NCBI GenBank assembly: GCA_030867685.1 | Contig: JAQOWU010000007.1 | Coordinates: forward strand, 2,604,001-2,639,608 | Direction: 5' to 3' | Source: Wickerhamiella versatilis | Taxonomy: Eukaryota | Length of the DNA stretch: 35,608 bases | Part shown: positions 2,511 through 34,048 of the stretch, piece after piece | Layout of the letters: every line of letters begins with the position of its first letter | How positions within the stretch are numbered: position 1 is the first letter of the stretch | Program-made: the position numbers and the translations under genes | The notes under the pieces: generated by a model | Database searches by the model: none | Told to the model about the DNA's origin: nothing | Seen by the model: the letters and a program-made list of their open reading frames with translations, nothing else

Positions 2511-2539
2511 TGGTTGGACAATGCAAGATAGCCCACTAC
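2511..2539 (+). repeat. 41-nt-unit dispersed motif, partial copy
   Basis: TGGTTGGACAATGCAAGATAGCCCACTAC. Confidence 0.9.
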
Positions 2540-3430
2540 AGTTGTCACTTGCATCCTCATGTTTTTCTACGGGCCGCATTCATCGCAAATGATGCCATTT
2601 CGTTCTGAAAGTGATGACACGAAGATTTTCTTAAAGATCTTGTTGACATTAATTCTCAATGTATGAAGTGCCGATAATGAGCTAAGCAACCAAAAATCCT
2701 GGATTGAGGATAAAAGATATGGGGCATTGCCCAATCAGTTTCTGGTAGCTTATCTGAGGGATGTTAGAAATCAAGTTGGTAACCCGTGATTATTCAGTGG
2801 GATTGCCGTACCCATCTTGACATGCTGTCTTTGAGTGCCATTTCGAGCCTGACTCGTCGGTCAATACCGGAGGAGTTTGCTGTACAGAAACATGCAGAAT
2901 TAGTAGCTTGAAAGGATTAAATTAATCTGAAAGTGAAGAAATGAATTATGCAAGACTTAATTCGCAAGATTCAATAAAATTCATGACAAGAGCACAGCCC
3001 TATTAGGTCTCAAATGAATTCTACGCGAGAAGTACGAAATAGATTAATGTAAAACTAGGTTATGCGAGCTAAACAGCGGTAATCCTTTGTGGTTACTCTA
3101 TTGTCAAATGTGCACATCAAACCTTGGAACAACTGCCAAAGACTCCTTGTAAAGGCCTCGGAGGGTGTAACGAGCTGACTCGAGCTTTAGTAGGAGGAGG
3201 CAATTCCACTAACATACTCGGGTAAAGAGTCTAAACTAGGTTTGTGGGTCGTTTACGCTCTTCAGCTTCATACGCTCATGAACATTAGGGCCTGTAAGTT
3301 ACAGCATAATAGGTAGTATACCCCACAGTAAGCCCGAATATTAGACCAAATATATATATTATATATTATAAGTCCAAGTAAGAGATGTAATTAACTACAT
3401 AATTCAGATGGGTATCAAGGTTTAAACTAC

Positions 3431-6400
3431 TTACAGCAGTACTAGCATTGCAGCGATACCGATCACAAGAGTACCAAACGGCTTGGACTTTTCTGCAGCA
3501 TTAGCAAGGGCTGGAGCAGAAGAAATAACAGCAGGTGCGGCAATAGGAGCCAATCCACTAGGTGACTCAGATGCTACGGAGGAAGCACTTGAAGCAGCAA
3601 CAGGAGCAGACTCACTTGGTGATTCAGATACCGCTGGGGAAGCACTTGAAGCAGCAACAGGAGCAGACTCACTTGGTGATTCAGATACCGCTGGGGAAGC
3701 ACTTGAAGCAGCGACAGGAGCAGACTCACTTGGTGACTCAAATGCCGCTGGGGAAGCACTTGAAGCAGCGACAGGAGCAGACTCACTTGGTGATTCAGAT
3801 GCCGCTGGGGAAGCACTTGAAGCAGCGACAGGAGCAGACTCACTAGCTGGTCCAGATGTACTTGGCCCAATGACCAAAGTTGTAGGCTCGGTCACAGTAT
3901 AGGTAGAAGAGCCATGGGTGAAAGTCGTTGGTGAAGGACAGTAAGTTGTGAAGTGAGTGACTTCTGCCGTCGCTGTGGTAATACCAGTGGCCACAGGACT
4001 TTCCTCACTCTGGGTATTGGTGCAATCGCATTCCTCTATAGATATTGTCGTCGCTTCAGTCACAGTGTAAGTGGAAGAACCATGAGTGAAAGTTGTTGGT
4101 GATGGACAGTACGTGGTGAAGTAGGTTGTGCCCGCTGTCGTGGTGGCATCAAAGCCTGCACCGCTTGACTCAGTAGCAGCACCTGCAGCTGCAGTACCCG
4201 ACTCGGTACCAGTAGCACCTGAGCCAGCAGCACCGGTACCAGTAGCAACGGATTCAGAACCAGATCCACCGGCACCAGTTCCAGTGGCACCTGAGCCAGC
4301 AGCACCGGTACCAGTAGCACCAGATTCGGAACCAGAGCTACCGGCGCCAGTTCCAGTAGCACCTGAGCCAGCAGCACCGGTATCAGTAGCACCAGATTCA
4401 GAACTAGAGCCACCGGCACCAGTTCTAGTAGCACCGGCAGAACCAGAGCCACCGGCGCCAGTTCCAGTAGCACCTGAGCCAGCAGCACCGGTACCAGTAG
4501 CGCCAGATTCAGAACTAGAGCCACTGGCACCAGTTCCAGTAGCACCGGCAGAACCAGAGCCACCGGCGCCAGTTCCAGTAGCACCGGTAGAAACAACATC
4601 AGACGAGCTCGTAGTCTGTGAAGTCTGCGGACTCACTGTGTGATTCCGACTAGTAGCCGGCTGCGATGTAGTGATGCTTGATACTTCCGGGGTAGCAGAG
4701 CCAGACTTTGTACTGGATCCAGACAATGATCCATGTCTGTTAGAGGACCCAGCAGGCAAAGTTACACTCGACAATGTTGGTTTCAAGCTCGATTTTTCAC
4801 CACTTGAACGCGTAGTGACTGTCTCAGGCAGAGTTACACTCGACAATGTTGGTTTGAAGCCCGACTTTCCACCACTCGAACGTGCAGTAATATAGGACGA
4901 CTGAGTTGTTCTAGTTGTCGGTACAGGTGATCCACTAGACCCATTGATGCCGCCACCTGACGTTACTTGAGCAGATGATGAAGTGGCTGTCGAAACAACG
5001 CTGGTCTGGGAAATTGACGTGGAACAGTGCGCAGGTGAAACAGTAATATCAAATCCAGAAACATGGTTCAACTTAGCAAGTGGCAATATCACATTAATGG
5101 CATCAATGATCTTGTTCACGTCATTCAGGTAGTCCGAGGATGCGTTGACCTGCGCCCACAATACACAACATGGGTGACGTGACAGTCCACCACCGACCTG
5201 AACAATGATGCTCGAGATTCCTTTGTTAATAAGATTCAGACCCGGAACAATAGAGTTAATCAAACCAACAAGTCCAGAACTGTTAAGAGCCTGTAGAATC
5301 TGGTGATCTATCTCCAATAGTTGAGAAATAGCATTCAAGACCTTGGCCTGGCTGTTATAGCTGATACAGTCAATATTACCAGATATGCCGGCAAGATCAT
5401 TGAAGACGGACTGGAGTGAATTAATATGTTCGGGAAGATCGAATATGTTAATGCCTGACTCGAAAGCGTTAATTACGGCATCCACTGCCTTTTCCAGGCT
5501 ATCAATGATGTCGCCAACGATTCCTTCGTTATCGCACTTGCAGCTCGAAGTGGCACTGGGGATAGCCACACTTGAAGTAGCAGGGCTTGTGATTACAATA
5601 GTAGAAGATGGCAAGCTTGAAATGGTGCTTGGAATATTGCTGATGCTAATCGATGAACCAGCCGTGGTGGGGGTTCCGCTAGCACTCACACCTGTTGTAC
5701 TACTCGCCGCTGCGAGCGAAAGAGTTGACGAAGAACAGTGCGCAGGTGAAACAGTAATATCAAATCCAGAAACATGGTTCAACTTAGCAAGTGGCAGTAT
5801 CACATTAATAGCGTCAATGATATTGTTCACGTCATTCAAGTAGTCCGAGGATGCGTTGACCTGCGCCCACAGAACACAACATGGGTGACGTGACAGTCCA
5901 CCACCGACCTGAATAATGATGCTCGAGATTCCTTTGTTAATAAGATTCAGACCCGGAACAATAGAGTTAATCACCTGAACAATTCCAAAACTGTTAAGTC
6001 CCTCGAGCAACTGATGATCTATCTCCAATAGTTGAGAAATAGCATTCAAGACCTTGGCCTGGCTGTTATAGCTGATGCAGTCAATATTACCAGATATGCC
6101 GGCAAGATCATTGAAGACGGACTGGAGTGAATTAATATGTTCGGGAAGATCGAATATGTTAATGCCTGACTTGAAGGCGTTAATTACGGCATCCACTGCC
6201 TTTTCCAGGCTATCAATGATGTCGCCAACGATTCCTTCGTTATCGCACTTGCAGCTCGAAGTGGCACTGGGGATAGCCACATTCGAAGTAGCTGGACTTG
6301 TGATTACAATAGTAGAAGAAGCCAAACTTGATACGGTGGTAGGGATAGTGGTGGCTGCAGATGATGAACACTCCCCAGATGAAACAGTAACATCAAATCC

Positions 6401-7033
6401 AGAAACGTGTTTCAACTTAGCAAGTGGCAATATCACATTAATAGCATCAATGATCTTGTTCACATCATTCAGGTAGTCCGAGGAAGCGTTCACCTCTCCC
6501 CACAATACACAACATGGGTGACGTGACAGTCCACCACCGACCTGAACAATGATGCTCGAGATTCCTTTGTTAATAAGATTCAGGCCCGGAACAATAGGCG
6601 TAATCAAACCAACAAGTCCAGAACTGTTAAGAGCCTGTAGAATCTGGTGATCTATCTCCAATAGTTGAGAAATAGCATTCAAGACCTTGGCCTGGCTGTT
6701 ATAGCTGATACAGTCAATATTACCAGATATGCCGGCAAGGTCATTGAAGACGGACTGGAGTGAATTAATATGTTCGGGAAGATCGAATATGTTAATGCCT
6801 GACTCGAAAGCGTTAGTTGCGGCATCCACCGCCTTCTCCAAGCTATCAATGATGTTACCAAGGATTCCTTCGTTATCGCACTGGCAGCTCGAAGTAGTTG
6901 CTGGCAATTTCACATCATGAGTTGCCGGACTAGTGAATGGAACAGTCGTCGATGCCAACGAGTATGAGCTCGTTGATGCATCTTGACATGCTACTAACTG
7001 AAGTACACTTTGTAGTATCACAAAGGCCCTCAT
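3431..7033 (-). CDS. Large GPI-anchored cell-wall/adhesin-like protein with three tandem Cys-containing helical domains
   Basis: ATG at 7033 (the ORF track starts at an upstream GTG). Signal peptide [16 protein letters not shown], three ~170-aa repeats, Gly/Ala/Thr/Ser repeats, two Sed1/Ccw12-type [14 protein letters not shown] motifs, and C-terminal NAA...hydrophobic tail typical of a GPI signal. Confidence 0.88.
3561..3845 (-). repeat. Coding minisatellite, 5 x 57 bp ([19 protein letters not shown])
   Basis: Units start at 3561, 3618, 3675, 3732 and 3789. Confidence 0.92.
4196..4590 (-). repeat. Coding tandem repeats encoding GATGTGA(A/G)GSG(S) units
   Basis: Repeated ccagtagcacc/gagcc blocks of variable length, roughly 30-39 bp. 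Confidence 0.85.
5025..6895 (-). repeat. Three near-identical ~520-550 bp domain-coding repeats (approx. 5025-5580, 5735-6290, 6380-6895)
   Basis: Long stretches are identical at the nucleotide level between copies. Confidence 0.92.
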
Positions 7034-9347: not shown

Positions 9348-9384
9348 TAGCCCACTACCTGAGACTGGTTGGACAATGCAAGAT
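9348..9384 (+). repeat. Dispersed motif, 36-nt-period variant (lacks TCACT)
   Basis: TAGCCCACTACCTGAGACTGGTTGGACAATGCAAGAT. Confidence 0.92.
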
Positions 9385-10540: not shown

Positions 10541-10569
10541 TACCCGAGACTGGTTGGACAATGCAAGAT
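10541..10569 (+). repeat. Dispersed motif, partial copy
   Basis: TACCCGAGACTGGTTGGACAATGCAAGAT. Confidence 0.9.
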
Positions 10570-10673: not shown

Positions 10674-10698
10674 ACCAGTCTCAGGTAGTGAAGTGGGC
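10674..10698 (-). repeat. Dispersed motif, inverted partial copy
   Basis: accagtctcaggtagtgaagtgggc, the reverse complement of GCCCACTTCACTACCTGAGACTGGT. Confidence 0.9.
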
Positions 10699-11350: not shown

Positions 11351-11379
11351 TACTTGAGACTGGTTGGACAATGCAAAAT
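11351..11379 (+). repeat. Dispersed motif, partial copy
   Basis: TACTTGAGACTGGTTGGACAATGCAAAAT. Confidence 0.88.
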
Positions 11380-11453: not shown

Positions 11454-11478
11454 CTGGTTGAATAATGCAAGATAGCCC
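11454..11478 (+). repeat. Dispersed motif, degenerate partial copy
   Basis: CTGGTTGAATAATGCAAGATAGCCC. Confidence 0.85.
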
Positions 11479-11513: not shown

Positions 11514-12014
11514 ATGAACAGGAAGTTTATCATTCGCATCATCCTCAGTGTACTGGTTATTATCACTGATAGCATTGCTCTTGGGATCATGGCTCATCTG
11601 CGTAGCCAATCCTGGGGTAGCTCTTTAATAGGAAGTGTCGTTTTGGCTGCAAATTTCTTGGTACTGGCTTTCACTCTATGGAAGATTCTTACCGATATAT
11701 TCCTACCACCTAACAAAATCCACATGCTCATATTCACCTGGTTATACGGTTTTGTCGATGGTATGATGCTGGCGGCTGCAGCCATCGTCCTAGGTCACCT
11801 GGACTCAGGACGCCTTTCTGAAAGAGCACTAGATGCTTTTTTATGGATAACAGGCGTTTTAATACTCTTTTTGTTGATTTATGAAGTTTCAATTATTACA
11901 AATAATAGTAAAAAAGATTACGAAAATCCTTTTGATGACAGTGACGAAACTTATCGTGAACCCAATCGTGCTGCAGGGGAAGAACTTTTGCATGAGCTTA
12001 GATCTCCAATCTAG
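11514..12014 (+). CDS. Four-TM membrane protein, MARVEL-like
   Basis: Four hydrophobic segments and an acidic tail. R...D.IALG and DG....AAA patterns are shared with the 21101-21688 protein. Confidence 0.65.
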   Translation: MNRKFIIRIILSVLVIITDSIALGIMAHLRSQSWGSSLIGSVVLAANFLVLAFTLWKILTDIFLPPNKIHMLIFTWLYGFVDGMMLAAAAIVLGHLDSGRLSERALDAFLWITGVLILFLLIYEVSIITNNSKKDYENPFDDSDETYREPNRAAGEELLHELRSPI

Positions 12015-13077: not shown

Positions 13078-13154
13078 ATTCAGGTAACCACAGTCTATCT
13101 TTAAGATTTTCTCAGCATATGATTTCGACTTTAAGAGAATTGAAATAGTTTGAC

Positions 13155-13176
13155 TGGACAATGCAAGATAGCCCAC
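13155..13176 (+). repeat. Dispersed motif, partial copy
   Basis: TGGACAATGCAAGATAGCCCAC. Confidence 0.88.
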
Positions 13177-13333
13177 AGTAAATTTATAAGAAGTATATTG
13201 CCAAGACAAAACTAATCGAAGTTCGTCGGTGTTTTTCTGGAGTCCATTCAAGTTGATCACTATGCTCATGATGAGACCAGGACTCTGAATTTGGACTTCC
13301 TAAAAAGAGAAGTGAGTACATAGCAAATACTTC
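13177..13333 (-). pseudogene. Decayed copy of the 3' end and 3' flank of the 22258-23177 membrane gene
   Basis: 13155-13333 aligns by eye with 22196-22379 (e.g. gtttttctggagtccattcaa, tctgaatttggac, tagcaaatacttc), with indels. Confidence 0.8.
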
Positions 13334-13869: not shown

Positions 13870-13905
13870 CTATCTTGCATTTTCCAGCCATTCTCAGTAG
13901 TAAAG
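13870..13905 (-). repeat. Dispersed motif, degenerate inverted copy
   Basis: ctatcttgcattttccagccattctcagtagtaaag. Confidence 0.8.
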
Positions 13906-14708: not shown

Positions 14709-14763
14709 AGATAGCCCACTTCACTAACTGAGACTGGCTGGACAATGCAAGATAGCCCACTAC
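14709..14763 (+). repeat. Dispersed motif, longest copy (41-nt unit plus 12-nt terminal direct repeat)
   Basis: AGATAGCCCACT-TCACTAACTGAGACTGGCTGGACAATGCA-AGATAGCCCACT-AC. Confidence 0.95.
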
Positions 14764-21051: not shown

Positions 21052-21100
21052 TGTATACACTGTGTTGCCGACGCTGCAATTTTGAGATGGGGTCAATGAT

Positions 21101-22004: not shown

Positions 22005-22040
22005 GCATGAGCATGAGCATGAGCATGAGCACGAGCACGA
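22005..22040 (+). repeat. Hexanucleotide microsatellite (GCATGA)4(GCACGA)2
   Basis: Read directly from the sequence. Confidence 0.9.
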
Positions 22041-22191
22041 GAATGTATACTGTCCAACCAGATTAATTTTGCTACATGGCTTTATGCTGTGGTGCTCTTC
22101 ACTTCTCTAATAGGATGTTCCTGTTATATAATGCCATCTGCAAGGTATCCTGCATCTGTACTCTCCTCAGCATTTACTAAGTGACATCGCT

Positions 22192-22218
22192 TGGTTGGAC
22201 AATGCAAGATATCCCACT
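22192..22218 (+). repeat. Dispersed motif, partial copy
   Basis: TGGTTGGACAATGCAAGATATCCCACT. Confidence 0.9.
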
Positions 22219-22257
22219 GTAAATGTATAAGAACTATATTGCCGAGACAAAGCTAAA

Positions 22258-23177
22258 TTAAGTTTGTGAGAGTTTTTCTGGAGTCCATTCAACTTGATCA
22301 CTACGCTCACGAGACCAAGATTCTGAATTTGGACACCCTAAAAAAAAGGAGGGTATTGAGAGTATGTAGCAAATACTTCCTGCTATTCCACCAAGAAGCA
22401 TCCTGGTATCGCCATTCTGTACGAATGACCACAAATTAACCACGGCCAGAATCAAACATGCACCTACAAAGACACTTAGCCATAGCGGAAACCACCATAT
22501 ACGGTCGTCAACCGGTGCAACTGCCAGAGAGAATGAGAGTATATGCATGGCACCAATGGTCTTAATGACCTAAACAGCTCAGTGGGTACCAAAGAAAAGG
22601 GTACCATGACTTTAATTGAGAAATATATTGCAGGCAAGGCCAAAAAATAAGGGATACATGAAGGAAGTTCGTTCATAAGTGCATATAACAAACATAAAAA
22701 TATAACTGAGGAAATGAGAAATCCAAGCATGCTGATGGTATAAAAGAAAACATTACAGCCAGAACTGTTTGCCCAAATTAAGCTGTAATCTAATTGACCG
22801 TAGATTCTGTCCTCACAATTTTTGGCGTCCATGATATATGTGACAAACAAAACAAATGAATTACAGAACCATATGACTAGAGCCCGCTGAGCAGCAAAGT
22901 AATCTTTAGGTTTGCAAAGGCAGTTAATAACAAAAGGGAAAAATGGGAGTAAGAATCCGATTAATCGCCATTCCATGGTTCCACGAGCAACCTGTGGGAT
23001 AGCAGCAAGCAAGACGCCAGCAAATACTAAAAACATAGATTGACATGCAATAACTCCATAATTAAGATAACTTGAATTAGGAGGAGATGAATTCTTATCG
23101 TCTTCTCTTTTCTTTGTGCCTTCTCTTACTTCATCGACAGTGAATTCTGATACGCGAAAACAATCGCCATCAGACAT
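22258..23177 (-). pseudogene. Multi-pass membrane protein, paralog of 26912-27709, interrupted by one frameshift near 22542
   Basis: ATG at 23177. RALVIWFCNSFVLF matches RAAAIWLCNSFVLL of the paralog, and similarity continues from ORF 22476-23240 (LFRSLRPLVP) into ORF 22258-22548 (SFSLA...LWSFVQ). Confidence 0.7.
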
Positions 23178-23199
23178 ATTTGTAATCAACACAATCTTG

Positions 23200-23224
23200 G
23201 ACTGGTTGAACAATGCGAAATAGC
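23200..23224 (+). repeat. Dispersed motif, degenerate copy
   Basis: GACTGGTTGAACAATGCGAAATAGC. Confidence 0.78.
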
Positions 23225-23544
23225 AGGCAGGCAGAATCACAGGATTATAAGAATCTATGAAGCTAAGGAATAATTACAACCAATCGTAATTATCATGCAT
23301 AGTTTTACTTTGTCTATGCTCAGGTATGTTGACATGCATTCACGAATAAGTAATTTTAATTGTTGACAAAAGCAAAACATTCGACCATTATGGATTATAT
23401 ATAAGTCTTTTATGTGGATTTTGTGTTCCTTCATATAAGTCTAACATTCTGTATTATATCTTAAGATGGTAGCAGGAAACATAAGATGCCAAATTTGACT
23501 ACGGAATGATATGTCATAGGATCCATCAACTATGACACTGGATA

Positions 23545-23642
23545 GGTTGGACAATGCAAGATAGCCACTGATGTATCATGCTGAAGAAGTTAACCAATTT
23601 CGGACAATGCAAGATAGCCCACTAAATTGAACGATGCAAGAT
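23545..23642 (+). repeat. Cluster of three motif fragments (23545-23569, 23602-23624, 23627-23642)
   Basis: GGTTGGACAATGCAAGATAGCCACT; GGACAATGCAAGATAGCCCACTA; TTGAACGATGCAAGAT. Confidence 0.9.
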
Positions 23643-23806
23643 GACACAGGCGAAGGAATCATCAAGTTTGGTAGAGGATTGAATGTTCAGTATCAGAATG
23701 AAGCAGATAAAACGGCATTATGATATCTGCTGGGTAGAGTAGGCGGTGCCTTAATATTAGCATATTTCGCATCTTTCACAAGGACTGAGAAATTGAAGCC
23801 ATAAAT

Positions 23807-26308
23807 CTATCTTAATAAGTATCTACCTGTTATGCTGTCTTCATTATCGGCGACCTGCGAGGGGCTTCCAGTAGCAACAATTTTCCCCCCAGCAGCGCCC
23901 CCCCCTGGACCAAGATCCACGACATAATCTGAATTTCGAATAATATCCAAGTCATGTTCTATAACAATAACAGTAGCCCCACTTGCGGTCAACTTCTGAA
24001 AGACGCGCAGTAACACCTGGATGTCTAATGGATGCAATCCGATTGAGGGTTCATCGAAAACAAACACCGAACCATGCTGATCCTTACGTAAATCTGCAGA
24101 AAGCTTAAGTCGCTGAGCTTCTCCTCCAGACAACGTAGTAGTCGCTTCACCAAGAGTGAGATACCCTAGGCCCAGCTCAACCAGCGAACGCAACTGGGAA
24201 TGCACCTTTTTCATCCCTGTTGTTTTAGCCAACACTTCCTCTATGGTCATTTCTAGCAGCTGTGGAAGCGAGTGCGTTTCGCGTTTACCCCTTTTGCCAT
24301 GTTCCTCCATTGAATAAATATACAGCCCTGCGTCAGGTTCATAGCGTGTACCATGACAGGTTGGACAAGTGATATCCACATCGGCAAGAAACTGTACATC
24401 CAATGATATCTGTCCTGTGCCATCACAAGCATGACAGCGAAGTGATCCAGTATTGTAGGAAAAGTCACCTGGTTTTAACTTGCGTCTTTTTGCCGTAGTT
24501 GTATTGGCATAAGCTCGCCGCAGCTCATCAAGCACACCACAGTAGGTTGCCACGGTTGACCTTGAATTTGCGCCAATAGGCGAAGCATCAATCACATACG
24601 TATTTGTCAAATCCTCGACGTCCAATATTTCAACAGTACTTGGTAACTTTCCACTGGCATGATGCGCTTTAAGCGCTGGTACAAGGCACTCAAGTATCAG
24701 AGTAGTCTTTCCAGACCCCGAAACACCTGTTACACCTATTAGCCGCTGTTTGGGAAAATCCACGGTTAGGGCGGAAACGGTATGAATAGGCTGTGTCTTT
24801 AGATGTATCGCTCCATTAATAAAAATATCTGAGGGTCGGAGACGTGGACGCACATGAACACTCTGGCTCCCCTCTATGAACCCTCCTATAAGAGAGCATG
24901 GGTTTCGAGCCAATTGTGACAAAGGAGAAGAATTAATCACCTCTCCTCCTTTTGATCCAGATCCTGGTCCAATTTCGATCAACCAGTCAGCGTTGCGGAG
25001 AACCTGTACGTCGTGGTCGACTGCGACAACAGTATTTCCATCACCTATAAGTGTATGAATGACACTCAATAGTCCCTCAATATTTACAGGGTGTAGGCCG
25101 ATAGATGGCTCATCCAACACATAGAGAACCCCGGTAGTTCGATTCCGAACTGCTCGTGAGAGCTGGACACGCTGTCTCTCACCTGTAGAGAGTGTAGAAG
25201 AAGGGCGATCAAGACTGAGATATCCCAAACCAAGCTCAATTAGGCGAGCAGAAATTTCTCTGATATTGTTTACGATACTGGTTCCCATTGCTTGCATCTC
25301 CACAGGAAGGTCCTCGGGAACTTCAGTGACCCATTTTGTGACATCAGCCAAAGTTTTATTAGCTATCTGCGCTAAATTGGCACCTCTTACAAGTGACGAT
25401 GATGCCTTCGGACTGAGTCTTGTACCGTGACAATCAGGACAAACCTGAATGCTGAGGTACTTATCAATCCTCTGTAACCCCTTTTCGGTTGAGGCATTTT
25501 TAAGCGCTTCCTCAACTGCGGTATACGCGCTTCTGAATGTCACATTTAAGTCAAAAAGCCTACCGGTCTTTGAAGGAATTAGCACCCTTATCTTTTCAGT
25601 GGGTCCTCGGAAAACAGTGTTTTTCTCCTTCTCCGAAAGGTCACAAAATGGAATCGTTGTACGGACACCCATTTCTCCAACTGCCCTAGCGTTGATAGAT
25701 AGGCCAAAAAGTGACCAAGGACCTACTGCACCTTCTTCAATTGTGAGATTTTCATCCGGTACTAACTTCGTCTCGTCAACTTCCCTGACCACACCTGTTC
25801 CGGAGCACCTTTTGCACGCACCGTCACTGTTGAAAGCAAATGATTCAGCAGATGGTGGGACAAACTCCTCAGCACATACCGGGCAAACTAGGTTTTTTTC
25901 AAGTGCCACGTTGATAGTAGGATCTAAATAGTGCCCATTCGGGCATTTATGGCTACCAACTCGGGAAAATAAGAGACGCAGCCCATTTAGAACCTCCGTT
26001 GAAGTTCCAAAAGTGCTTCTTATTCCAGGTATAGGAGGTCTTTGTCTTAGGGCAAGCGCCGCTGGGATATGCTCAATGGCATCAACGGACGGACGAGCAG
26101 TAGTTCTGATTCTTCGACGGGTGTAAGTAGACAGTCCCTCTAAATACCGGCGGGATCCCTCGGCATACAGAATCCCAAGGGCAAGTGAAGACTTTCCAGA
26201 CCCGGACACACCAGCTATGCCAACAAATTTTCCCAATGGAATTGATATATCGATATTCTTCAGGTTGTGAACTCTTCCTCCTCGTATCACTATATAGTCG
26301 GGCTCCAT
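23807..26308 (-). CDS. uvrA: Short UvrA-family (class II, UvrA2/DrrC-like) ABC ATPase of bacterial type
   Basis: Two Walker A motifs (GVSGSGKSS, GVSGSGKTT), signatures LSTGERQR and LSGGEAQRLKL, Walker B LDEP/FDEP, CxxC zinc fingers, HNLKNID. About 833 aa from the ATG at 26308, shorter than canonical UvrA. Confidence 0.93.
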   Translation of the reverse strand: MEPDYIVIRGGRVHNLKNIDISIPLGKFVGIAGVSGSGKSSLALGILYAEGSRRYLEGLSTYTRRRIRTTARPSVDAIEHIPAALALRQRPPIPGIRSTFGTSTEVLNGLRLLFSRVGSHKCPNGHYLDPTINVALEKNLVCPVCAEEFVPPSAESFAFNSDGACKRCSGTGVVREVDETKLVPDENLTIEEGAVGPWSLFGLSINARAVGEMGVRTTIPFCDLSEKEKNTVFRGPTEKIRVLIPSKTGRLFDLNVTFRSAYTAVEEALKNASTEKGLQRIDKYLSIQVCPDCHGTRLSPKASSSLVRGANLAQIANKTLADVTKWVTEVPEDLPVEMQAMGTSIVNNIREISARLIELGLGYLSLDRPSSTLSTGERQRVQLSRAVRNRTTGVLYVLDEPSIGLHPVNIEGLLSVIHTLIGDGNTVVAVDHDVQVLRNADWLIEIGPGSGSKGGEVINSSPLSQLARNPCSLIGGFIEGSQSVHVRPRLRPSDIFINGAIHLKTQPIHTVSALTVDFPKQRLIGVTGVSGSGKTTLILECLVPALKAHHASGKLPSTVEILDVEDLTNTYVIDASPIGANSRSTVATYCGVLDELRRAYANTTTAKRRKLKPGDFSYNTGSLRCHACDGTGQISLDVQFLADVDITCPTCHGTRYEPDAGLYIYSMEEHGKRGKRETHSLPQLLEMTIEEVLAKTTGMKKVHSQLRSLVELGLGYLTLGEATTTLSGGEAQRLKLSADLRKDQHGSVFVFDEPSIGLHPLDIQVLLRVFQKLTASGATVIVIEHDLDIIRNSDYVVDLGPGGGAAGGKIVATGSPSQVADNEDSITGRYLLR

Positions 26309-26393
26309 TTTAAGAACATGGATCGAAGGGGTCGAGTGCAATGCTTAGAATTCTGGTCATCGGACGATTACGATATATTACTACGAGCTTAGT

Positions 26394-26419
26394 TGAGACT
26401 GGTTGGAGATGCAAGATAG
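26394..26419 (+). repeat. Dispersed motif, partial copy
   Basis: TGAGACTGGTTGGAGATGCAAGATAG. Confidence 0.88.
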
Positions 26420-26595
26420 TTTTCTGAGAGTATAGTATTATCTTAAGTCCTACATTACAGCATGATATGAATGGCTTGGTTATACCGAATTGCAGAAAGG
26501 AAGAATCGCTTCCAGATTAATTCTTTTGTCCACTTTTGAAGTTGATATCAGCTAATTTCATAATTAGAGACGAAAGTTTTGAGAGTTGCCTATCT

Positions 26596-26620
26596 TGAGA
26601 CTGGTTGGACAATGCAAGAT
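26596..26620 (+). repeat. Dispersed motif, partial copy
   Basis: TGAGACTGGTTGGACAATGCAAGAT. Confidence 0.9.
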
Positions 26621-26911
26621 GAACTATTTATTTTCTTGCTTCGTTCAAACTCACGAATTTCACTTATCAATTGAAGTCATTGGCTTGTCATAAATAATGC
26701 AAACTATTCAATGCAGATGTATATGAGTCACCCCCACCTCCGGTTGCATACTGAGTAAACGAACAGTACATAATCCTGATTTCCCTCCTTTCGATTAAAA
26801 ACATTTATGCTGGGTATGCCACATAATGCCAGTTGAACAATGATAGTTATTGCCACGCCACCAATCTCGAGAATCGTAACATTATTATTCTGGAAGTTGA
26901 TACCATAGTCT

Positions 26912-27709
26912 TCAAGGGCTTTGAAATATTAAAAAGCACGCAGTGAATATGTACCCAAGCAGACACACTATTCCAGGAGCAAGGAATAGTGGTGTGACCT
27001 GCACGGTATCCCATACTGAAAATGGGCTACTTACGATACATACGCTGATAAATACCTGTAGAATCCATGTGTTCGTGGTGAGCGATGCAGTGGCGGGGAA
27101 TGATAGACTAGCAATCAAAAGAACCGATGGAATAACTGTCTGTAATGACCGAACCAAGTTACTAAAAGCAGCTGGTAGAGTGGGAATCAAGAACACGCCA
27201 CTAAACGATGAGCCCACAATCATCATAGTAACAGTTATGGGATCAATTGGCCTATTTAAATCATGATTGGTCGCCAAATTCAGAGTCATAGCTGAAAAAA
27301 TTAGCCAAATGGAGCCCAAGATCGCAAAAGCGACTAATACCAAATCACCAAATTCGGATTTAGGATGCTCAGAAATAAAATTCTTATAATCACCACTTTC
27401 TAATATTCCTCTTTCTAGGTACTGATTGTTGAAAAAGTAGGCGATCAAAAGAACAAAAGAATTGCAGAGCCAAATAGCAGCAGCGCGGTATACTGCCATA
27501 TAGCCTTTCTTCTTGTAGAAATGGGAGAGGCATAGTGGCAAAAATGATCCTAGTAATATGAACCACTTGAGCTTTATTGCCAGGAAAGCTGCTTCAGGTA
27601 CCACAGCGGAGCTGAGACCCACAGCAGTCAATCCGAGCGCTTCAAGACCAACGGTAGTTTTCCTTTCTCCTGATGTCTTTTTGGCTTCTTTTGCGGAATG
27701 ATCACTCAT
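26912..27709 (-). CDS. Hypothetical multi-pass membrane protein (paralog of 22258-23177)
   Basis: 265-aa ORF with about 7-8 hydrophobic segments and the shared IWxCNSFVL motif. Confidence 0.7.
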   Translation of the reverse strand: MSDHSAKEAKKTSGERKTTVGLEALGLTAVGLSSAVVPEAAFLAIKLKWFILLGSFLPLCLSHFYKKKGYMAVYRAAAIWLCNSFVLLIAYFFNNQYLERGILESGDYKNFISEHPKSEFGDLVLVAFAILGSIWLIFSAMTLNLATNHDLNRPIDPITVTMMIVGSSFSGVFLIPTLPAAFSNLVRSLQTVIPSVLLIASLSFPATASLTTNTWILQVFISVCIVSSPFSVWDTVQVTPLFLAPGIVCLLGYIFTACFLIFQSP

Positions 27710-28110
27710 TAAACGCTTGCGATGAGAAGAGTAGGACGTTATGTAAGCGAGTTGTTATTCGCGGCCCTATGCGTTGTGTACCGTCCAGTTAGATATAAAC
27801 GCCGTTGGTTCCTAGGGCGCACAGAGTAATTTCTAGACTAGAAGCTTCCAACATAGTTTTTCCCTATCATGACGGTGGCAAAACCAGATTTCACCACGCA
27901 AGGCTCGCTGGTGAATGAAAGGTAACCACTAAAAAATAATCGGACAACACGATGGCAATCAATGATATGAAATCAAAGACTAGTAAGAAGGGAAAGTAGA
28001 TCATTAATTTAGGAACACAGAGCGAGTACGGTTGATGTTTCAAAAGAGGCAATCTGAATAATGGTGCTGGTATTAATGTCTATTAATGAAGGGACAATAT
28101 ACATTTCTTC

Positions 28111-28146
28111 CTGCCTGAGACTGGTTGGACAATGCAAGATAGCCCA
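28111..28146 (+). repeat. Dispersed motif, partial copy
   Basis: CTGCCTGAGACTGGTTGGACAATGCAAGATAGCCCA. Confidence 0.92.
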
Positions 28147-28367
28147 AACCTAATGCTTATATTAAATTGCTATAAGTAAATACCGCTAAATAAAGGTAGG
28201 GATCATTGACATCCGCACAGTGAATCACTATACCTCAACTCCATCCATGTAGCGTTAGCAATGACATTAGACAAAAAAAAGAGTCCGAGGGCAATCAAAA
28301 GATAGTTCTTGAAATGATGGTGGGAAGTACCCTACTATAAATCAAACGGAGTTTGTGGGCCATTAAA

Positions 28368-30196
28368 TCAAACATTTTGCTCTAACTTGTCGTAGTACCA
28401 AATGGTAAGGATAGTATAAATAAACATTGAGGAGACATGATATACGATAGAGCGAGCGGATGCATTCCAGAAAACTCTACTAGGCTGTACTCGAATGAAC
28501 CTATATTCTGGAGAGGAGGGTATTTTATTCTCAGTGAAATCAATGGAAACCGAAATCATAAGCCACAGAATATTATAGGCACAAAGTATCTTAGTGGCAC
28601 TAGTGATTGACATCTTTCGAAGCCGAATCCCTTTTCTCACGCATGATGTTACCAATACAACACTAAAATATTCTGTAGCAATCAAGACTAGTAGCATCAA
28701 GAATATGTAGATGTTATTAGAACGGACGGATGAAAAGAGAAAGAGTTGACCAAAAAGTTGGGATAAAAATAAAAAATGATTTCTCCAACGAGAAAGTTCG
28801 AACTTGGTGTGCGGAGAGAGACCGATGAGAAGCGTATATATTAGCGCAGTATGTGCCAATATATTGATCGCAAACGCTGATGCACCATCAGATAGAGTCG
28901 AGCCTGATCTCGTCGCCGCTGCATAGCTTGAGAGGGTAAGTACAAATATCGGTATGACAATCAAACTCCATGAAATTTTTTTTTCACAGCATTCAAGATG
29001 TATATGAAATAGAACAACAACCAGTCTCCTATTATTACGACAAGAATAGATGCGTCTCCAATCATTAACTGGACCGAAACTACTCTACCCACCTTCTCAG
29101 ATATCTCCGAAATATGCTGAAGATCTCCCTGATCACTATAGAAGACATATTCCTTATGAAGATGCTGAGCACAGCTTTCAAGATAGCATACATACATGTG
29201 CACGGACAGGTACGCGAGCATATATATCAGAGTAGATATATACAAAATCCATAATAAACTTCCCTTTCTGGCTGAGGATCTTGGTATACAGGTTCCAGAA
29301 ATGCCCTTTTCACTTCTTTTTGAATCATCCTCGTCATCGCCTTGTGGCCTAGCAGCCCACGCGCTCAGAAGATTGAAAATATAGATACATGAGACGCATA
29401 ACATGACAGATACAACTGAAGCAACATTTTCTTTGGGCCATAGATTCATAATGGGGAATTTTTCAACCACATCTGAAAGAGGAGCATATTCTTCAAAATC
29501 ATCATCGTCTCCAAAAATATATTGATCAGCTCTTGTTGTTAATAAACCAATTAGAGACCCCAAAAGACAGGATATTGACAATCCTATATTATCAATTTTG
29601 TTTATTGTGCCTCCTAAATATGTATTCTTCAGTCCGGCAATCAATAATGCGGTAAGAGACAGAAGTTCCAGAGGCAGTAGTTCCAAGAAGTGCCAGTACT
29701 CAAAACGATTGGACACCTGCAGTAAAAAAGCAGTAAGACTCGTTAATAAAGTTAAATTCAAAAAAAAGTACCGCCACCTGGACAAACATACCTTGGCTTG
29801 AGAAGAAAGCATACTCAATGTAATAAATGTAAAAGCAGTGTAGGTTAGAATTTCAGATATAGCTCTGAAAAAACTAAAGTAATAACACATTTTAGTGAGT
29901 GCCATAATATTTCCCATAAGCAACAGGAATGTGGTAGAACATGCAACTAGGCACGACGGGACTTTTGACCCTATTAATACAAGAACTCCTGACACTGTTA
30001 AAAAAGAGTATAGTGCAGGGAAATAAAAAGGGCAGTACTCTAGTCGGAACAGGGTCGAAGGAGCGTAAGCATTTACGATAGTTTCAACAGCCAACCCGAA
30101 ATATATTATATACAGAAGACCCTTGTTAGCCCAAAAGACTTTAGTGTTGTCATCAAGGGACTTGAGTTTTGAGCTAATTGTGCTGATACGCTGCAT
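28368..30196 (-). pseudogene. Large multi-pass membrane protein with two internally homologous halves, split by a frameshift in an A9 run; possibly a highly diverged MFS
   Basis: ORFs 28961-30196 and 28368-28964 overlap by 4 nt, and the second lacks an ATG start. One extra base in the T9 at 28976-28984 fuses them. EILTYTAF...KVCLSRWRYFFL repeats as NILAHTAL...KFELSRWRNHFL. Confidence 0.6.
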
Positions 30197-30271
30197 TCGC
30201 CATTCAACTCCAAGCAGATAGATTCACGAAGCAAAGAAGCTGATGGCAATACCAGATTAGTAACGAGTAAT

Positions 30272-30317
30272 CACTTCACTACCTGAGACTGGTTGGACAA
30301 TGCAAGATAGCCCACTT
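30272..30317 (+). repeat. Dispersed motif, more than one full unit
   Basis: CACTTCACTACCTGAGACTGGTTGGACAATGCAAGATAGCCCACTT. Confidence 0.95.
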
Positions 30318-30707
30318 AATCAAGTTAATGCGCACGCATCTGCCTTAATATATTATTCAACGCATAATAATCGTTACCATACTGAGATCCAATAGACGAG
30401 GCATTAACGTGGATAATCTGATCATACGCTAAACTACGTCATAATTCGACGATTAAGCTGTTTATGCGACAACCAGGTTGCTGTTCAATAAGTCTTGTGC
30501 TATTGATCCTAGGAATGATTAGTTGTTCTGTGCTCTAATGACATGCTGGAGAAATATAAGACTGTTGTATGTGAATTATGCTTCATAATTTGACATCACA
30601 AACCGTTGAAAATACCTGAGTAGCATGGTTTTTTTGGTTTCATACTCGTTTTTTACTCCTTTTCGGAAGGGAAACAAACAGCTGAATGAAAATGCCAAAG
30701 CTGAAGG

Positions 30708-31793
30708 TTAAACTGTAGAGATTTCAGCGCCGAGTTCTGATTCCTCATAACCGCTTAGGTGTCCCTTGTGCTGCTTCCACCATTTGCGAATTGATCTTAG
30801 CCTCCTATATGGCGGATAATCATCGATAGAGGGGGGGCTATAGATGAAAAAGTCATATGCAAGAGAGCCAATAAAACCACCTAGAGTTGGTGCAGTGATG
30901 CCTCCTACCAGCCACCAAAGACTGTGATCGTACCAAATTGATTTTGGGAATCCCATCATCGACATAACAAGCCGAGGGCCCAGGTCACGCACTGGATTCA
31001 GCCCAAAAGGCGTGTAGAAACCTGCGCAACACCCAAGACATGTAATGGTCATTCCGAAGTACCATGCGTTCAGGCCTTTGGCTGGATTAAGGTTTTTATC
31101 ATCACTCACTGAAAGAATAATTGCTAACAGAATAGCAGTACCACTAAACTCATTGAACCATGAAGATGCCACCGGCATTCCTGGCTCGGTAGTGGTATAA
31201 AATGAGCCGCCGGTTGGTAGAGACCATGCATTAGGATCAAGCGTCCTGAGAGCTGGATAATATAGGCCAAAGCTCCAAGCACTTGCAAGCATGGCAGCAA
31301 AGAACTGGGCTACCCAGTATCTCACAGCCTTTAGAAAAGGGAATCCTCTGAAGAGCCACATGTTAAATGTAACCGTTGGATTAAGATGAGCGCCGGAATA
31401 TGCACCAGCTATGCAAATGCCTATGGTGAGACCGATACCCCAACCAAATACCATGGTAACCCAGTTCCCCTTATTTACATCCATACCGACGTTCATTTGA
31501 GCATTGCTCGAGTAACCGATGAACAGGAAGACAAAAGTCCCTAAGAATTCGGCAAGCTCACCTTTATACCTTGATTTAAACGACGACACATCTTTCTCAC
31601 TTTGTGGGAGCTTAGGTGCGGTAGTGTAATTAGTTTTGAGCGCTCGCTCCCGCTCGAGGTCGGATATAATCAGATGGAGCTGTTCAAGAAGTATTTTACT
31701 TCGAGATAGTACATCTATATTCTCGTCAGCATCAGCACTGTATTCTTTTGGATGCTCAACTGTTTCTTTATGCTCAATGGTAGCAGCCTTCAT
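30708..31793 (-). CDS. Aquaglyceroporin (MIP family, GlpF/Fps1-like)
   Basis: AEFLGTF, SGAHLNPTVT, NEFSGT and GLNPVRDLGPRL; the Asp after the second NPA-box equivalent is typical of glyceroporins. Confidence 0.93.
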   Translation of the reverse strand: MKAATIEHKETVEHPKEYSADADENIDVLSRSKILLEQLHLIISDLERERALKTNYTTAPKLPQSEKDVSSFKSRYKGELAEFLGTFVFLFIGYSSNAQMNVGMDVNKGNWVTMVFGWGIGLTIGICIAGAYSGAHLNPTVTFNMWLFRGFPFLKAVRYWVAQFFAAMLASAWSFGLYYPALRTLDPNAWSLPTGGSFYTTTEPGMPVASSWFNEFSGTAILLAIILSVSDDKNLNPAKGLNAWYFGMTITCLGCCAGFYTPFGLNPVRDLGPRLVMSMMGFPKSIWYDHSLWWLVGGITAPTLGGFIGSLAYDFFIYSPPSIDDYPPYRRLRSIRKWWKQHKGHLSGYEESELGAEISTV

Positions 31794-32066
31794 GCAGAGT
31801 TTTGGCGTTTACTTACGATTAATATTTTTCCTAGCCCTAACCTCCACCTAGTACGAGGATGCGGGGGATAAGATGACAGGGCTACAGCCAGATATCCCTC
31901 ATTAGACGTGATGGCCCGATAACTGCTTGATAAATGTTCATTGACACTTTACTAAACTCTGGGTTCAATTTGGTGATAGACTGTAACTGATACCGCTTTT
32001 AGTATTCAGGAAACCAAAATTTTTCGTATGCGGCGTTCTTAGATTATGTCAGATCGTTCCTGTCGT

Positions 32067-32095
32067 TGGTTGGACAATGCAAGAAGGCCCAGTTC
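32067..32095 (+). repeat. Dispersed motif, degenerate partial copy
   Basis: TGGTTGGACAATGCAAGAAGGCCCAGTTC. Confidence 0.85.
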
Positions 32096-32507
32096 TTTCG
32101 TCACTAACTTAATAATTTATGTGCACAGTTATAGCTTGATATGTCACCTACAACCTAACATGCTGGCGCCTCAATTTATCCTCTTTTATTTTGGAAGACA
32201 GAGTCGGCTATTAGCATTCTAGGCGGTCAGGTAAAGCCACAGGCGTAGTCCAATGTAGTTGATGGCGGATAATATTATAGGATTTATAATATTGCGGAAA
32301 TCAATCAAATTCCGCCAAAAATATATTCCGCGGTCAAATAATTTGGGACTAAAATCGTTCAAAAATTGCATTAAAAACATAGCATTGAACCAAATAGCAG
32401 TCTTGAGGGTTTCAAATATCTAGCCAGGTATACATCAAAGACAACAATGATGATCGTATGATGCTAAATTGACTTACATATTATATACGTCATTTAATAG
32501 AAGCCAT

Positions 32508-32558
32508 TAGCCCACTTCACTACCTGAGACTGGTTGGACAATGCAAGATAGCCCACTA
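32508..32558 (+). repeat. Dispersed motif, near full-length perfect copy
   Basis: TAGCCCACTTCACTACCTGAGACTGGTTGGACAATGCAAGATAGCCCACTA. Confidence 0.95.
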
Positions 32559-32834
32559 TATAACAGGATATGTCTCAACTTTTCTTTGCATTCATAGATC
32601 ATTTCAGAATAAATATGCGCACTTGCACTGGTGTATAAGCTAATTCCGTAATAAATCAGTTTCAAAAGCAATGCTAAGCGTTCTTCACCTAGAACCATAT
32701 ACATCTAGTTTAACTGAACTGCCAGTGAAAACATACTTTACTGGGCGAGATGGAAACAATAGGATCAGATTTAATATGTCTTACGAAGCTTAAATCTCAT
32801 TAGAAGGTTGCTATAGACTAGATTGAATTAGGTC

Positions 32835-33962
32835 TCAATTAGCCCAAAATCCCCTTGGTATTGCATAGTGCTCCGCAAATAAGAAATAGCTATAAGTGAA
32901 TATGACTCCGCAGGAACCTCCAGTTGCAATGTCAGTTATAGCCATATCTAACTGCTGTTTTGATGGTATTTTACCAGCCATCGTAGTTATACTTGCAAGG
33001 ATTACTTTGACAACGAATACCGAGATAAATGGGGTCAAGTAAGCCCGCCAATGCCAGTGGAAACCGCTAGTAGAAATACCATGTTTTGCACCAAGGATTC
33101 CGAGTATTCCACAAGCAGCTATGTGAATCCAGCTTGTACATGAAGCAAGTAGGTGTGAAATACATGTCTCAGTTCGAATAACTTGATTGAAGAAGCATAC
33201 GACAAGAGTAACCAGGACAACTGGCTTTTCCTTTAACAGCGGCATGATTATAGTTTTCTTCTTGCTTGTAACCGATGGTTTAGTAGTATTGACTTGCAAC
33301 CTAGCTACCCGTAAAGCAATAGGCATTTGTATCAAAAGCGAAAAACCAGCTAAAGAAAGGATTGATACCGTTTTAATCAGTACTGTAAATACCGTAGGTA
33401 TTCTCATTTCAGCATTCGAAAAATATATTGAAAGTATATGAAGTAGAACATTCACTACAAAGGTTCCCAGAATGATGTTGCGATGCCCTTCCCCTCCAGA
33501 TGCCTTGTAGACAAGTGTTAATACAGCTGGGATGATAGCCGTCCTGGAGATAAAGGTAATCAAGTGTAAAGATATTAAAGCCAAATAAAGTAGTATGGAG
33601 ATAGTTAGTGATCTTTGGTGATCAATCCAAAACCCCAACCATGCTTTTACCGGAGATAATAATTCAGTAAACAAGTTACATGATCCAATTCCTACTGCAG
33701 ATGCGAACAATGCTTGAAAATGGTCAACAGGTTGGCAGCGAATATCTAATATCCGCAAAAATCCATTCTTGAAGGCCACTGGGTCGTTAAACCCACTTCG
33801 TTCATGTATATATATAAGGAGAAGCACGAGCATCCCTGAAAATAAGGACACGATACCGATTGTAGCCATAGGAGTAAGCTGTAGTAGACACTCCTCGTCT
33901 GTTCTCTGATGCTGGTTAGACCATGAGAATACCCATTTGTCCGATTCACCAGTCACAGACAT
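32835..33962 (-). CDS. Hypothetical multi-pass membrane protein
   Basis: 375-aa ORF with many hydrophobic segments; no family recognised. Confidence 0.65.
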   Translation of the reverse strand: MSVTGESDKWVFSWSNQHQRTDEECLLQLTPMATIGIVSLFSGMLVLLLIYIHERSGFNDPVAFKNGFLRILDIRCQPVDHFQALFASAVGIGSCNLFTELLSPVKAWLGFWIDHQRSLTISILLYLALISLHLITFISRTAIIPAVLTLVYKASGGEGHRNIILGTFVVNVLLHILSIYFSNAEMRIPTVFTVLIKTVSILSLAGFSLLIQMPIALRVARLQVNTTKPSVTSKKKTIIMPLLKEKPVVLVTLVVCFFNQVIRTETCISHLLASCTSWIHIAACGILGILGAKHGISTSGFHWHWRAYLTPFISVFVVKVILASITTMAGKIPSKQQLDMAITDIATGGSCGVIFTYSYFLFAEHYAIPRGFWAN

Positions 33963-34007
33963 CTGACCAAATCCCGCTCGAACACCTAATATTTATTATT
34001 AATAACA

Positions 34008-34048
34008 ACCTGAAACTGGTTGGACAATGCAAGATAGCCCACCTGAGA
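34008..34048 (+). repeat. Dispersed motif, 33-nt-period variant running into a second unit
   Basis: ACCTGAAACTGGTTGGACAATGCAAGATAGCCC-ACCTGAGA. Confidence 0.92.

Follow-up and report, generated by a model that had tools for sequence, protein, structure and literature searches.

Across a 35,608-nt stretch of the genome of the yeast Wickerhamiella versatilis (GenBank assembly GCA_030867685.1, contig JAQOWU010000007.1, positions 2,604,001 to 2,639,608 of the forward strand; hereafter the window), a 41-nt unit, AGATAGCCCACTTCACTACCTGAGACTGGTTGGACAATGCA, recurs as short dispersed copies. Judged from their sequence, copies with a variable start phase, a 3′ end set by a boundary, a length of at most one template pass and no target-site duplication (TSD) look like template-length products of a telomerase-like activity. 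We lean slightly towards the reading that the unit is the telomeric repeat of this yeast and that its dispersed copies are patches, each laid down in a single round of telomerase synthesis where DNA broke and was rejoined. We infer all three components of this reading: that the unit is terminal telomeric DNA, that telomerase made the patches and that the patches lie at break-and-rejoin sites.

Anatomy, placement and read evidence of the motif copies

Circular mapping of the unit on both strands across the window, cross-checked with blastn, yielded 25 copies of at least 20 nt (range 20–53 nt) and six fragments of 12–19 nt, spanning positions 2511–34042; the initial annotation, made from the sequence alone, had counted about 24 and about seven, in good agreement. 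Within the copies, 712 of 741 positions (96%) are identical to the 41-nt unit, and 12 of the 25 are perfect. The core 14-mer GGACAATGCAAGAT, with up to one mismatch allowed, has 19 occurrences, where 100 shuffles predict 0.03, and the full 41-mer, with up to three mismatches, has two, where 0.00 is expected.

One linear frame of 53–55 nt, composed of the 41-nt unit and a 12-nt terminal redundancy, AGATAGCCCACT, accommodates all 21 plus-strand copies of at least 20 nt. Coverage of this frame rises steadily from the 5′ side, reaches 21/21 at frame positions 34–42 and collapses past position 53. Accordingly anchored, the 3′ ends of these copies are far less dispersed than their 5′ starts (SD 3.5 versus 9.1 nt; Rayleigh R 0.87 versus 0.38): 20 of the 21 end at unit positions 4–14, eight of them at positions 12/13, directly after ...AGATAGCCCACT (p = 3.7e-6), and the starts are scattered over unit positions 1–34. 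Copies also extend very unequally around the core, by as much as 31 nt in the 5′ direction and by no more than 10 nt in the 3′ direction. The longest copy, 14709–14761, carries the same 12 nt at both of its ends, and no copy exceeds 53 nt. The copies are therefore not random pieces of an endless array, because such pieces would show uniform end phases.

The borders of the copies are sharp, with identity falling from 96% inside to 29–30% in the adjoining 12 nt on either side (25 copies). All 25 are internal, their flanks being unrelated, non-repeat sequence that matches the continued unit at 29–30%. TSDs of at least 4 nt were absent from all 25 copies, the longest being 3 nt, in a single copy; A-rich tails were likewise missing, as were inverted repeats (25 copies checked), and no shared flank outside the motif was seen apart from one duplicated segment. 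Sharp borders together with the lack of TSDs indicate insertion of ready-made sequence rather than decay of a conserved site. A transposon, a miniature inverted-repeat transposable element or a solo long terminal repeat was rejected on the absence of TSDs of at least 4 nt in 25 copies and of a shared flank beyond the motif bar that one duplication. A known RNA family or tRNA-derived element was also ruled out, as Rfam at gathering thresholds gave no match in the window and ARAGORN found no tRNA.

Placement is equally constrained. None of the 25 copies lies inside an ATG-initiated open reading frame (ORF) of at least 120 aa, although such ORFs make up a coding fraction of 0.54 (P ~3e-9 under random placement); two copies overlap ORFs of just 50–79 aa, which are probably spurious. 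The initial annotation had stated that no motif lies within an ATG gene, which stands for the 25 longer copies; two short fragments (19104–19116 and 24355–24368) do fall inside ORFs, possibly as chance matches. The shared orientation with few exceptions that had been described is borne out by 21 plus-strand and four minus-strand copies (binomial p = 9e-4), and this orientation tracks the chromosome rather than the genes, which occupy both strands. Likewise, the unbroken alternation of motif and gene reported for 18.6–34.0 kb was recovered, with all nine spacers around the eight minus-strand genes holding one or more copies of 20 nt or longer. Between 9.3 and 34.0 kb, copies occur at a density of ~1 per 1.1 kb, many spacers containing two to four of them 50–450 nt apart, and their distances to genes vary widely (22–986 nt to gene starts and 49–2,858 nt to gene ends). 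As a separate observation, TGGACAATGCA of the copy at 18662 (18666–18676) recurs inverted at 18701–18711, 25 nt downstream, forming a small inverted repeat directly 3′ of the acyltransferase gene.

Larger segments also have borders at motif copies. A segment of ~190 nt is duplicated, at 13138–13333 and 22179–22379, with ~80% identity; its left border is a motif copy, and the DNA further left is unrelated. A module at 32558–34007, comprising the 375-aa gene and its flanks, is bracketed by the copies 32508–32557 and 34008–34042. Module contigs in two isolates, X9 and X10, which are represented by assembled contigs (~10.2 Mb), have 90–98× depth compared with ~28× for single-copy DNA and differ from the window by ~2%. 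Reads from X24, one RNA run under the same species label, show over the 375-aa gene the same paralog differences as the isolate contigs; because these differences are shared with contigs at ~3× depth, the gene belongs to a multi-copy family. The bin 34285–34951 stands at ~2× depth in both isolates. To the left of the module, an isolate contig ends at 32321, and there is no X9 or X10 contig depth at 32346 and 32376, within the 186-nt stretch 32322–32507; a food-metagenome contig, X14 (31678–32537), spans this stretch with 13 differences. The gap in X9 and X10 may reflect a structural difference between strains or a hole in the assembly, and a hole alone proves nothing.

Over 15609–32321, X9 and X10 contigs show 0 differences from the window and break only at the longer copies, and across 15.6–32.3 kb no difference in the presence or absence of copies or cassettes was found between the two isolates. 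The initial annotation had asked whether strain breakpoints fall at motif copies; no gain or loss of a cassette is seen in the two isolates over 15609–32321. The motif is abundant genome-wide in the isolates. Summed word depth in the bins of two long copies is ~1,070–1,110 versus 26–31 in single-copy bins, a value that is not a copy number, and 212 of 4,647 X9 contigs fall on a 20-kb stretch, with contigs breaking at copies. Apparent skips between distant copies in X9 and X10 were rejected as deletions, their shorter side being just 20–30 nt (51 nt in the sole case that goes back), and are read as other motif-bearing loci placed on two copies.

At two long copies, X24 includes 55 and 58 reads that step back by 41 nt and have 41 nt on either side, so head-to-tail arrays of the 41-nt unit exist in RNA. 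Three junctions between unique sequence and array are carried by 58, 79 and 92 reads (agreement 0.96–1.0); in all three, the unique sequence lies 5′ of the plus-strand motif, each entering the repeat in a different phase, and on the 3′ side of the motif the reads either give a mixed consensus (~0.6) or continue in the repeat. Arrays that start but do not end in clean unique sequence suit transcripts running from subtelomere into telomere. One of these three abundant RNA species has a degenerate partial unit, then repeat up to ...CCCACT, then unique sequence (mixed consensus ~0.6). The three junction RNAs are candidate subtelomere-to-telomere transcripts, and the one with the degenerate partial unit is alternatively a candidate telomerase RNA. 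Neither of two flank consensus words from X24 loose ends has a match in the window, which places the origin of those transcripts outside it. A telomerase RNA gene was also considered for the 53-nt copy at 14709, which stands in an ORF-poor stretch of 3.5 kb, and was rejected, since this copy has two changes lacking in the others.

Proposed telomerase patches and rival explanations

If telomerase made the patches, its RNA template would be ~53 nt long, comprising the 41-nt unit and the 12-nt redundancy. A broken 3′ end would pair anywhere along this template, giving a variable 5′ start, and would be extended to the template's 5′ boundary, giving the common 3′ end ...CCCACT and a length of at most 53 nt; the extended end would then, rather than mature into a telomere, be joined to other DNA or copied onto it. 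Repeated cycles would leave one or more patches in nearly every spacer, with gene-hitting patches purged by selection, and the shared plus orientation would arise if it was mainly the centromere-side end that was extended, followed by distal re-completion. Some patches would then be genuine joints of segments with separate histories. Catalysis would fall to telomerase, together with ordinary end joining or with break-induced replication, instead of a site-specific recombinase.

By analogy, one unit plus a short redundancy, with variable entry and a fixed stop, would be the behaviour of a telomerase RNA template, and terminal redundancy is reported as typical of yeast telomerase RNA templates (PMC6115765). 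Tandem arrays with a period set by the 12-nt redundancy are expected from iterative template copying. Long telomeric units are known from other budding yeasts: that of Pichia kudriavzevii measures 28 bp (PMC6053246), and the putative one of P. norvegensis measures 43 nt (PMC7857110). Simple filler at two-ended breaks should take either orientation with equal likelihood and is hard to square with the chromosome polarity, and the avoidance of ORFs together with two to four copies per spacer suggests many selection-filtered events rather than one per gene. That the copies mark joined DNA ends is plausible. The initial annotation had regarded them as junction marks, and this part of its proposal gains from the template-length products, the duplication that starts at a copy, the bracketed module and the chromosome polarity; the integron or site-specific recombinase mechanism attached to it does not survive.

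Several observations weigh against a telomerase origin. The terminal location of the unit is presumptive, and the unit, with 9 G and 11 C, has no G/C strand bias and no G-rich strand. Its similarity to the 28-bp unit of P. kudriavzevii is at chance level (1,913 of 2,000 shuffles score as well), and literature searches with the motif strings and for a 41-bp/nt telomere repeat returned no match, the supplements of PMC7857110 and PMC13376923 lying beyond the search; literature on telomere units of Pichia and Starmerella species added nothing usable to the two units cited above, and the 20-mer TTGGACAATGCAAGATAGCC had no match in JGI metagenome contigs. Variant units such as TACCCGAGAC occur in one window copy and in RNA reads, where a single template predicts none, and the minus-strand copies at 10674 and 15936 end at positions 30–33, outside the frame. 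The presence of core positions 34–41 and 1 in all 21 plus-strand copies is predicted equally by a selected protein-binding site. Over 15.6–32.3 kb, no copy is polymorphic between the two isolates compared, so that nothing points directly to insertion still going on. Thousands of dispersed copies, instead of arrays, could account for the high summed depth, and the tandem signal in DNA comes from only one contig, which goes back 39 nt at single-copy depth (Logan contigs collapse arrays). Finally, the zero RNA depth over part of the window, described below, could mean that the RNA strain is without the region.

Among the alternatives, a low but appreciable probability is given to the copies being relics of former chromosome ends, in which case an arm would have been truncated, healed by a telomere and extended by capture of DNA, foreign DNA included, each copy being a junction. 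This account restates the accretion idea of the initial annotation with telomere healing as the catalyst; it overlaps with the telomerase-patch reading and differs mainly in the amount of DNA added per event. The chromosome-polar orientation (21 plus, four minus) would follow from it, as would the duplication starting at a copy, the multi-copy module lying between copies with depth steps of 3×, 2× and 1× to its right, and the bacterial-type gene with a copy on each side, 86 nt upstream and 164 nt downstream; for Magnaporthe, telomere-tagged relics at internal sites have been read as tags of sequence that was once terminal (PMC7367193). However, former ends should show random end phases and some tracts longer than one unit, whereas the 3′ ends cluster at unit positions 4–14 and the 53-nt limit is not passed. 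Random breaks should also truncate genes, yet 25/25 copies miss ORFs and tblastn shows no gene fragments, and many spacers hold two to four copies only 50–450 nt apart.

Selection on the sequence itself offers another explanation, which we rate as unlikely: the core (~GGACAATGCAAGATAGCC) would be a selected site for a telomere-binding or other sequence-specific protein, acting as a silencing relay, insulator, roadblock terminator or origin. The core positions common to all 21 plus-strand copies, the excess of the core 14-mer (19 versus 0.03 expected), the 12 perfect copies among 25, the occupation of nine consecutive spacers by one copy or more and the silence of the genes in X24 are all in keeping with such a site. 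Perfect identity over 46–53 nt is nevertheless far beyond what binding needs, and the borders are sharp (flanks at 29–30%) rather than graded as conservation would be. Copies reach much farther 5′ of the core (up to 31 nt) than 3′ of it (up to 10 nt), distances to gene starts (22–986 nt) and ends (49–2,858 nt) are not fixed, and binding would account for the retention of copies, not for their origin.

It is improbable, in our assessment, that the unit is non-telomeric, being either a minisatellite or the 3′ terminus of a retroelement or RNA that spread as 5′-truncated copies by reverse transcription. A 3′-anchored, 5′-variable pattern is also the mark of target-primed reverse transcription, the terminal location of the arrays is our inference, and there is no G-rich strand. 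Against retro-copies stand the absence of TSDs and A-rich tails, the lack of any copy above 53 nt or of a longer shared flank bar one duplicated segment, and the absence of an encoded reverse transcriptase in the window (Pfam, 15 ORFs). Moreover, W. versatilis and W. domercqiae, two of the three genomes studied in the Wickerhamiella/Starmerella (W/S) clade, are reported to contain very few transposable elements, 0.2–1% (PMC13376923). A non-telomeric unit is further disfavoured by tandem arrays at the exact period of the 12-nt redundancy, as iterative template copying would give.

The integron-like array originally proposed, with the motif as recombination site and a recombinase encoded elsewhere moving single-gene cassettes, retains next to no probability: it would suit the one or more copies per spacer and the eight co-oriented genes, but the copies lack hairpin-forming symmetry (three longest copies, one on both strands, four folds; z +0.45 to +1.99 versus shuffles) and TSDs, vary in length and phase with no fixed site, may stand several to a spacer and also occur as tandem arrays in RNA, the 15 scanned window ORFs include no recombinase or transposase, and the arrangement is identical in two isolates over 15609–32321.

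Gene content of the window

The features of the window are listed in the table below. Its ORFs lack introns and have a fungal character, CTG codons are not rare, and GC content per kb ranges from 37 to 54%. The gene labels given earlier (Transferase family, MARVEL, UvrA-like and MIP) were all recovered with Pfam, and no recombinase or transposase family turned up when 15 ORFs of at least 120 aa were scanned against Pfam, in line with what had been stated from the sequence. The description of the genes as functionally unrelated is only partly right, given two sets of paralogs: the 233-aa and 265-aa proteins are 26% identical (E 5e-11), and the 411-aa protein is 28% identical to the product of the 3′-open ORF 34638–35606 (E 1e-14). 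The MARVEL protein has a weak match (E 6e-4) to a 166-aa ORF at 11514–12014. Comparison of window proteins against the window with tblastn revealed no gene fragments. Other ORFs encode an MFS/TRI12-type transporter, a short-chain dehydrogenase, a LIP-family lipase and membrane proteins without a Pfam match; the MFS protein has no close named relative, and the multi-copy 375-aa family gives a weak lead (score 0.85) to half-size MFS/UNC-93-like proteins.

The UvrA-like protein comprises ABC_tran and UvrA DNA-binding domains and is 60–64% identical over its full length to Actinomycetota proteins of ~820–880 aa annotated as 'excinuclease ABC subunit UvrA' (Georgenia, Nocardia, Microbacterium, Streptomyces); relatives closer than these reach 72% identity at most, none with an assigned name. 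Its gene is a credible candidate, on sequence grounds, for a bacterial-origin gene acquired horizontally by the yeast, and motif copies flank it 86 nt upstream and 164 nt downstream. Its short length recalls, presumably, the UvrA2/DrrC-type drug-resistance paralogs. Protein matches place relatives on sister-species contigs: of the UvrA-like protein on that of P0020 (72% identity, 40.9-kb contig), and of the MFS protein at 68–84% identity, as on that of P0139 (84%, 18.6-kb contig).

RNA depth in X24 is zero for the genes between ~18.9 and 32 kb, covering 18.9–22.9 kb and most of 23.6–29.6 kb in this one data set. In the left part of the window, a 1,200-aa ORF at 3431–7033 on the minus strand contains nested tandem repeats (57-nt units ×5.3 and 72/111-nt units) and three ~640-nt copies that are 90–95% identical; it resembles the repeat-rich surface or adhesin-like proteins that are frequent near the ends of yeast chromosomes. 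The Pfam matches of this ORF (DUF3164 and a docking domain) were set aside as probably spurious, as no stretch passes alone. A 113-aa ORF at 14911–15252 on the minus strand has a plausibly protein-like sequence and lies in the ORF-poor interval 13.1–16.6 kb, which holds five motif copies.

Table. Motif copies, fragments and genes of the window. Arrows give the unit positions of the first and last nucleotide of a copy; those passing position 41 run into the next unit.
Feature	Position	Strand	Description
Motif copy	2511-2537	+	27 nt, 27→12, perfect
Motif copy	9353-9384	+	32 nt, 14→4, perfect
Motif copy	10541-10569	+	29 nt, 17→4, 1 mismatch (TACCCGAGAC variant)
Motif copy	10674-10698	-	25 nt exact (6→30); a degenerate further part of the unit precedes
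Motif copy	11351-11376	+	26 nt, 17→1, 1 mismatch
Motif copy	11454-11478	+	25 nt, 26→9, 2 mismatches
Motif copy	13155-13176	+	22 nt, 31→11, perfect; left edge of ~190-nt duplicated segment 13138-13333
Motif copy	13870-13897	-	28 nt, 20→6, 3 mismatches
Longest motif copy	14709-14761	+	53 nt, 1→12 of next unit (entire inferred template frame), 2 mismatches
Motif copy	15375-15402	+	28 nt, 26→12, 3 mismatches
Motif copy	15936-15959	-	24 nt, 10→33, perfect
Fragment	16063-16074	+	12 nt, chance possible
Motif copy	18002-18043	+	42 nt, 8→8, 4 mismatches (28 nt exact); isolate contigs break at copy
Motif copy	18280-18299	+	20 nt, 34→12, 3 mismatches
Motif copy	18662-18684	+	23 nt, 27→8, perfect; followed by inverted 11-nt fragment 18701-18711
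Transferase-family (PF02458) acyltransferase, 514 aa	18747-20291	-	Pfam
Fragment	19104-19116	+	13 nt, within acyltransferase ORF, possibly chance
Fragment	20681-20697	+	17 nt, 37→12, perfect
Motif copy	21029-21051	-	23 nt, 36→17, 2 mismatches
MARVEL-domain membrane protein, 195 aa	21101-21688	-	Pfam
Motif copy	22192-22218	+	27 nt, 27→12, 1 mismatch; left edge of duplicate 22179-22379
233-aa gene	22476-23177	-	No Pfam match; distant paralog of 265-aa gene
Motif copy	23200-23224	+	25 nt, 24→7, 3 mismatches; 22 nt upstream of ATG of 233-aa gene
Motif copy	23545-23566	+	22 nt, 28→8, perfect; goes on as ACT past a 1-nt deletion
Motif copy	23602-23623	+	22 nt, 32→12, perfect
Fragment	23627-23642	+	16 nt, 2 mismatches
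UvrA-like ABC ATPase, 833 aa	23807-26308	-	Pfam; 60-64% identity to Actinomycetota UvrA paralogs
Fragment	24355-24368	+	14 nt, 1 mismatch, within UvrA-like ORF, probably chance
Copy with internal deletion	26394-26419	+	14 nt exact, 26 nt gapped; 86 nt upstream of UvrA-like ATG
Motif copy	26596-26620	+	25 nt, 21→4, perfect
265-aa gene	26912-27709	-	No Pfam match; distant paralog of 233-aa gene
Motif copy	28114-28146	+	33 nt, 19→10, perfect; isolate contigs break at copy
411-aa gene	28961-30196	-	No Pfam match; distant paralog of ORF 34638-35606
Motif copy	30272-30317	+	46 nt, 9→13, perfect; reads and contigs from other genome places pile up
MIP (aquaglyceroporin-type), 361 aa	30708-31793	-	Pfam; best named relative Starmerella bombicola, 51% identity
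Motif copy	32067-32095	+	29 nt, 27→14, 3 mismatches
Motif copy	32508-32557	+	50 nt, 4→12, perfect; left border of multi-copy module
375-aa membrane gene, multi-copy family	32835-33962	-	Isolate contigs at ~3× depth with paralog differences
Motif copy	34008-34042	+	35 nt, 18→11, 1 mismatch; right border of multi-copy module

Comparison with known systems

Wickerhamiella/Starmerella yeasts are described as having three-chromosome genomes with long terminal 'end' domains of low expression, few transposable elements and a deficit of DNA-repair genes; xenologous genes, of bacterial and mould origin, are enriched in these end domains, an enrichment that is significant in W. versatilis (PMC13376923). 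The window looks like a transcriptionally quiet region of this kind, with its X24-silent gene array, a bacterial-type gene, genes without close named yeast relatives, isolate contigs that total about 10 Mb and a single Starmerella-affiliated protein match, that of the MIP protein at 51% identity, by which the yeast would probably belong in or near this clade. The main text of that paper describes no sequence mark between genes, and hence not this dispersed motif (PMC13376923). As a speculative extension, with perhaps a modest chance of being right, telomerase seeding followed by end joining or break-induced copying might be the routine by which end domains are rebuilt and foreign DNA enters, the patches recording joins and delimiting modules that are later duplicated or shuffled between patches. 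Were this so, it would provide a mechanistic basis for the exceptional horizontal gene acquisition of Wickerhamiella/Starmerella-type yeasts, and a link of telomerase patches to the entry or shuffling of foreign genes would be new. Silencing of unusually long range is reported in end domains (PMC13376923), and the copies, should telomere proteins prove to occupy them, would be candidates for relaying it.

If the telomerase-patch reading is right, the copies alone predict the template, 53 nt long and ending at the complement of ...CCCACT, and they would constitute a base-resolution record of break repair in a domain with horizontally acquired genes. Owing to the long unit, each patch keeps its template entry phase and stop point, which six-letter telomere repeats cannot do.

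The likeness to integron attC arrays lies in a short repeat between single, co-oriented genes; the present region differs in having no integrase in the window, no attC-like fold, variable copy length and phase, a eukaryotic host and isolates without cassette variation. A closer counterpart is provided by the short interstitial telomeric sequences of vertebrates, reported as telomerase insertions made during double-strand-break repair (PMC2246262, PMC7215372, PMC8537989), which share short internal tracts, unique flanks and no TSD and are read as telomerase-template repair scars. Those papers define insertion by absence at orthologous loci, whereas here it is suggested by copy anatomy. The W. 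versatilis copies further differ in their 41-nt unit, in that each patch is a fraction of a template pass whose ends reveal the template boundaries, and in being very dense and strongly polar within a silent yeast region.

In Magnaporthe oryzae, internal telomere-tagged relics are read as once-terminal tags and as sites of duplication and end joining (PMC7367193), a setting similar to ours in that telomere-type sequence borders duplicated segments and that breakage, end joining or break-induced replication acts near ends. Here, however, there is no retrotransposon, and in place of (TTAGGG)n on the ends of elements there are sub-unit pieces anchored at their 3′ ends. Subtelomeres of Saccharomyces cerevisiae carry interstitial TG1-3 tracts between X and Y′ elements. 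They resemble the present copies as telomere-polar tracts between subtelomeric modules and as possible points of recombination or breakage. Interstitial telomeric sequences that promote rearrangements have also been reported (PMC11626172, PMC7736798). The S. cerevisiae tracts part a few large repeated elements, whereas here sub-unit patches part ordinary single genes over at least 25 kb. Taken against these systems, the W. versatilis region is different in unit length, patch density, polarity and the position of the patches between ordinary and horizontally acquired genes.

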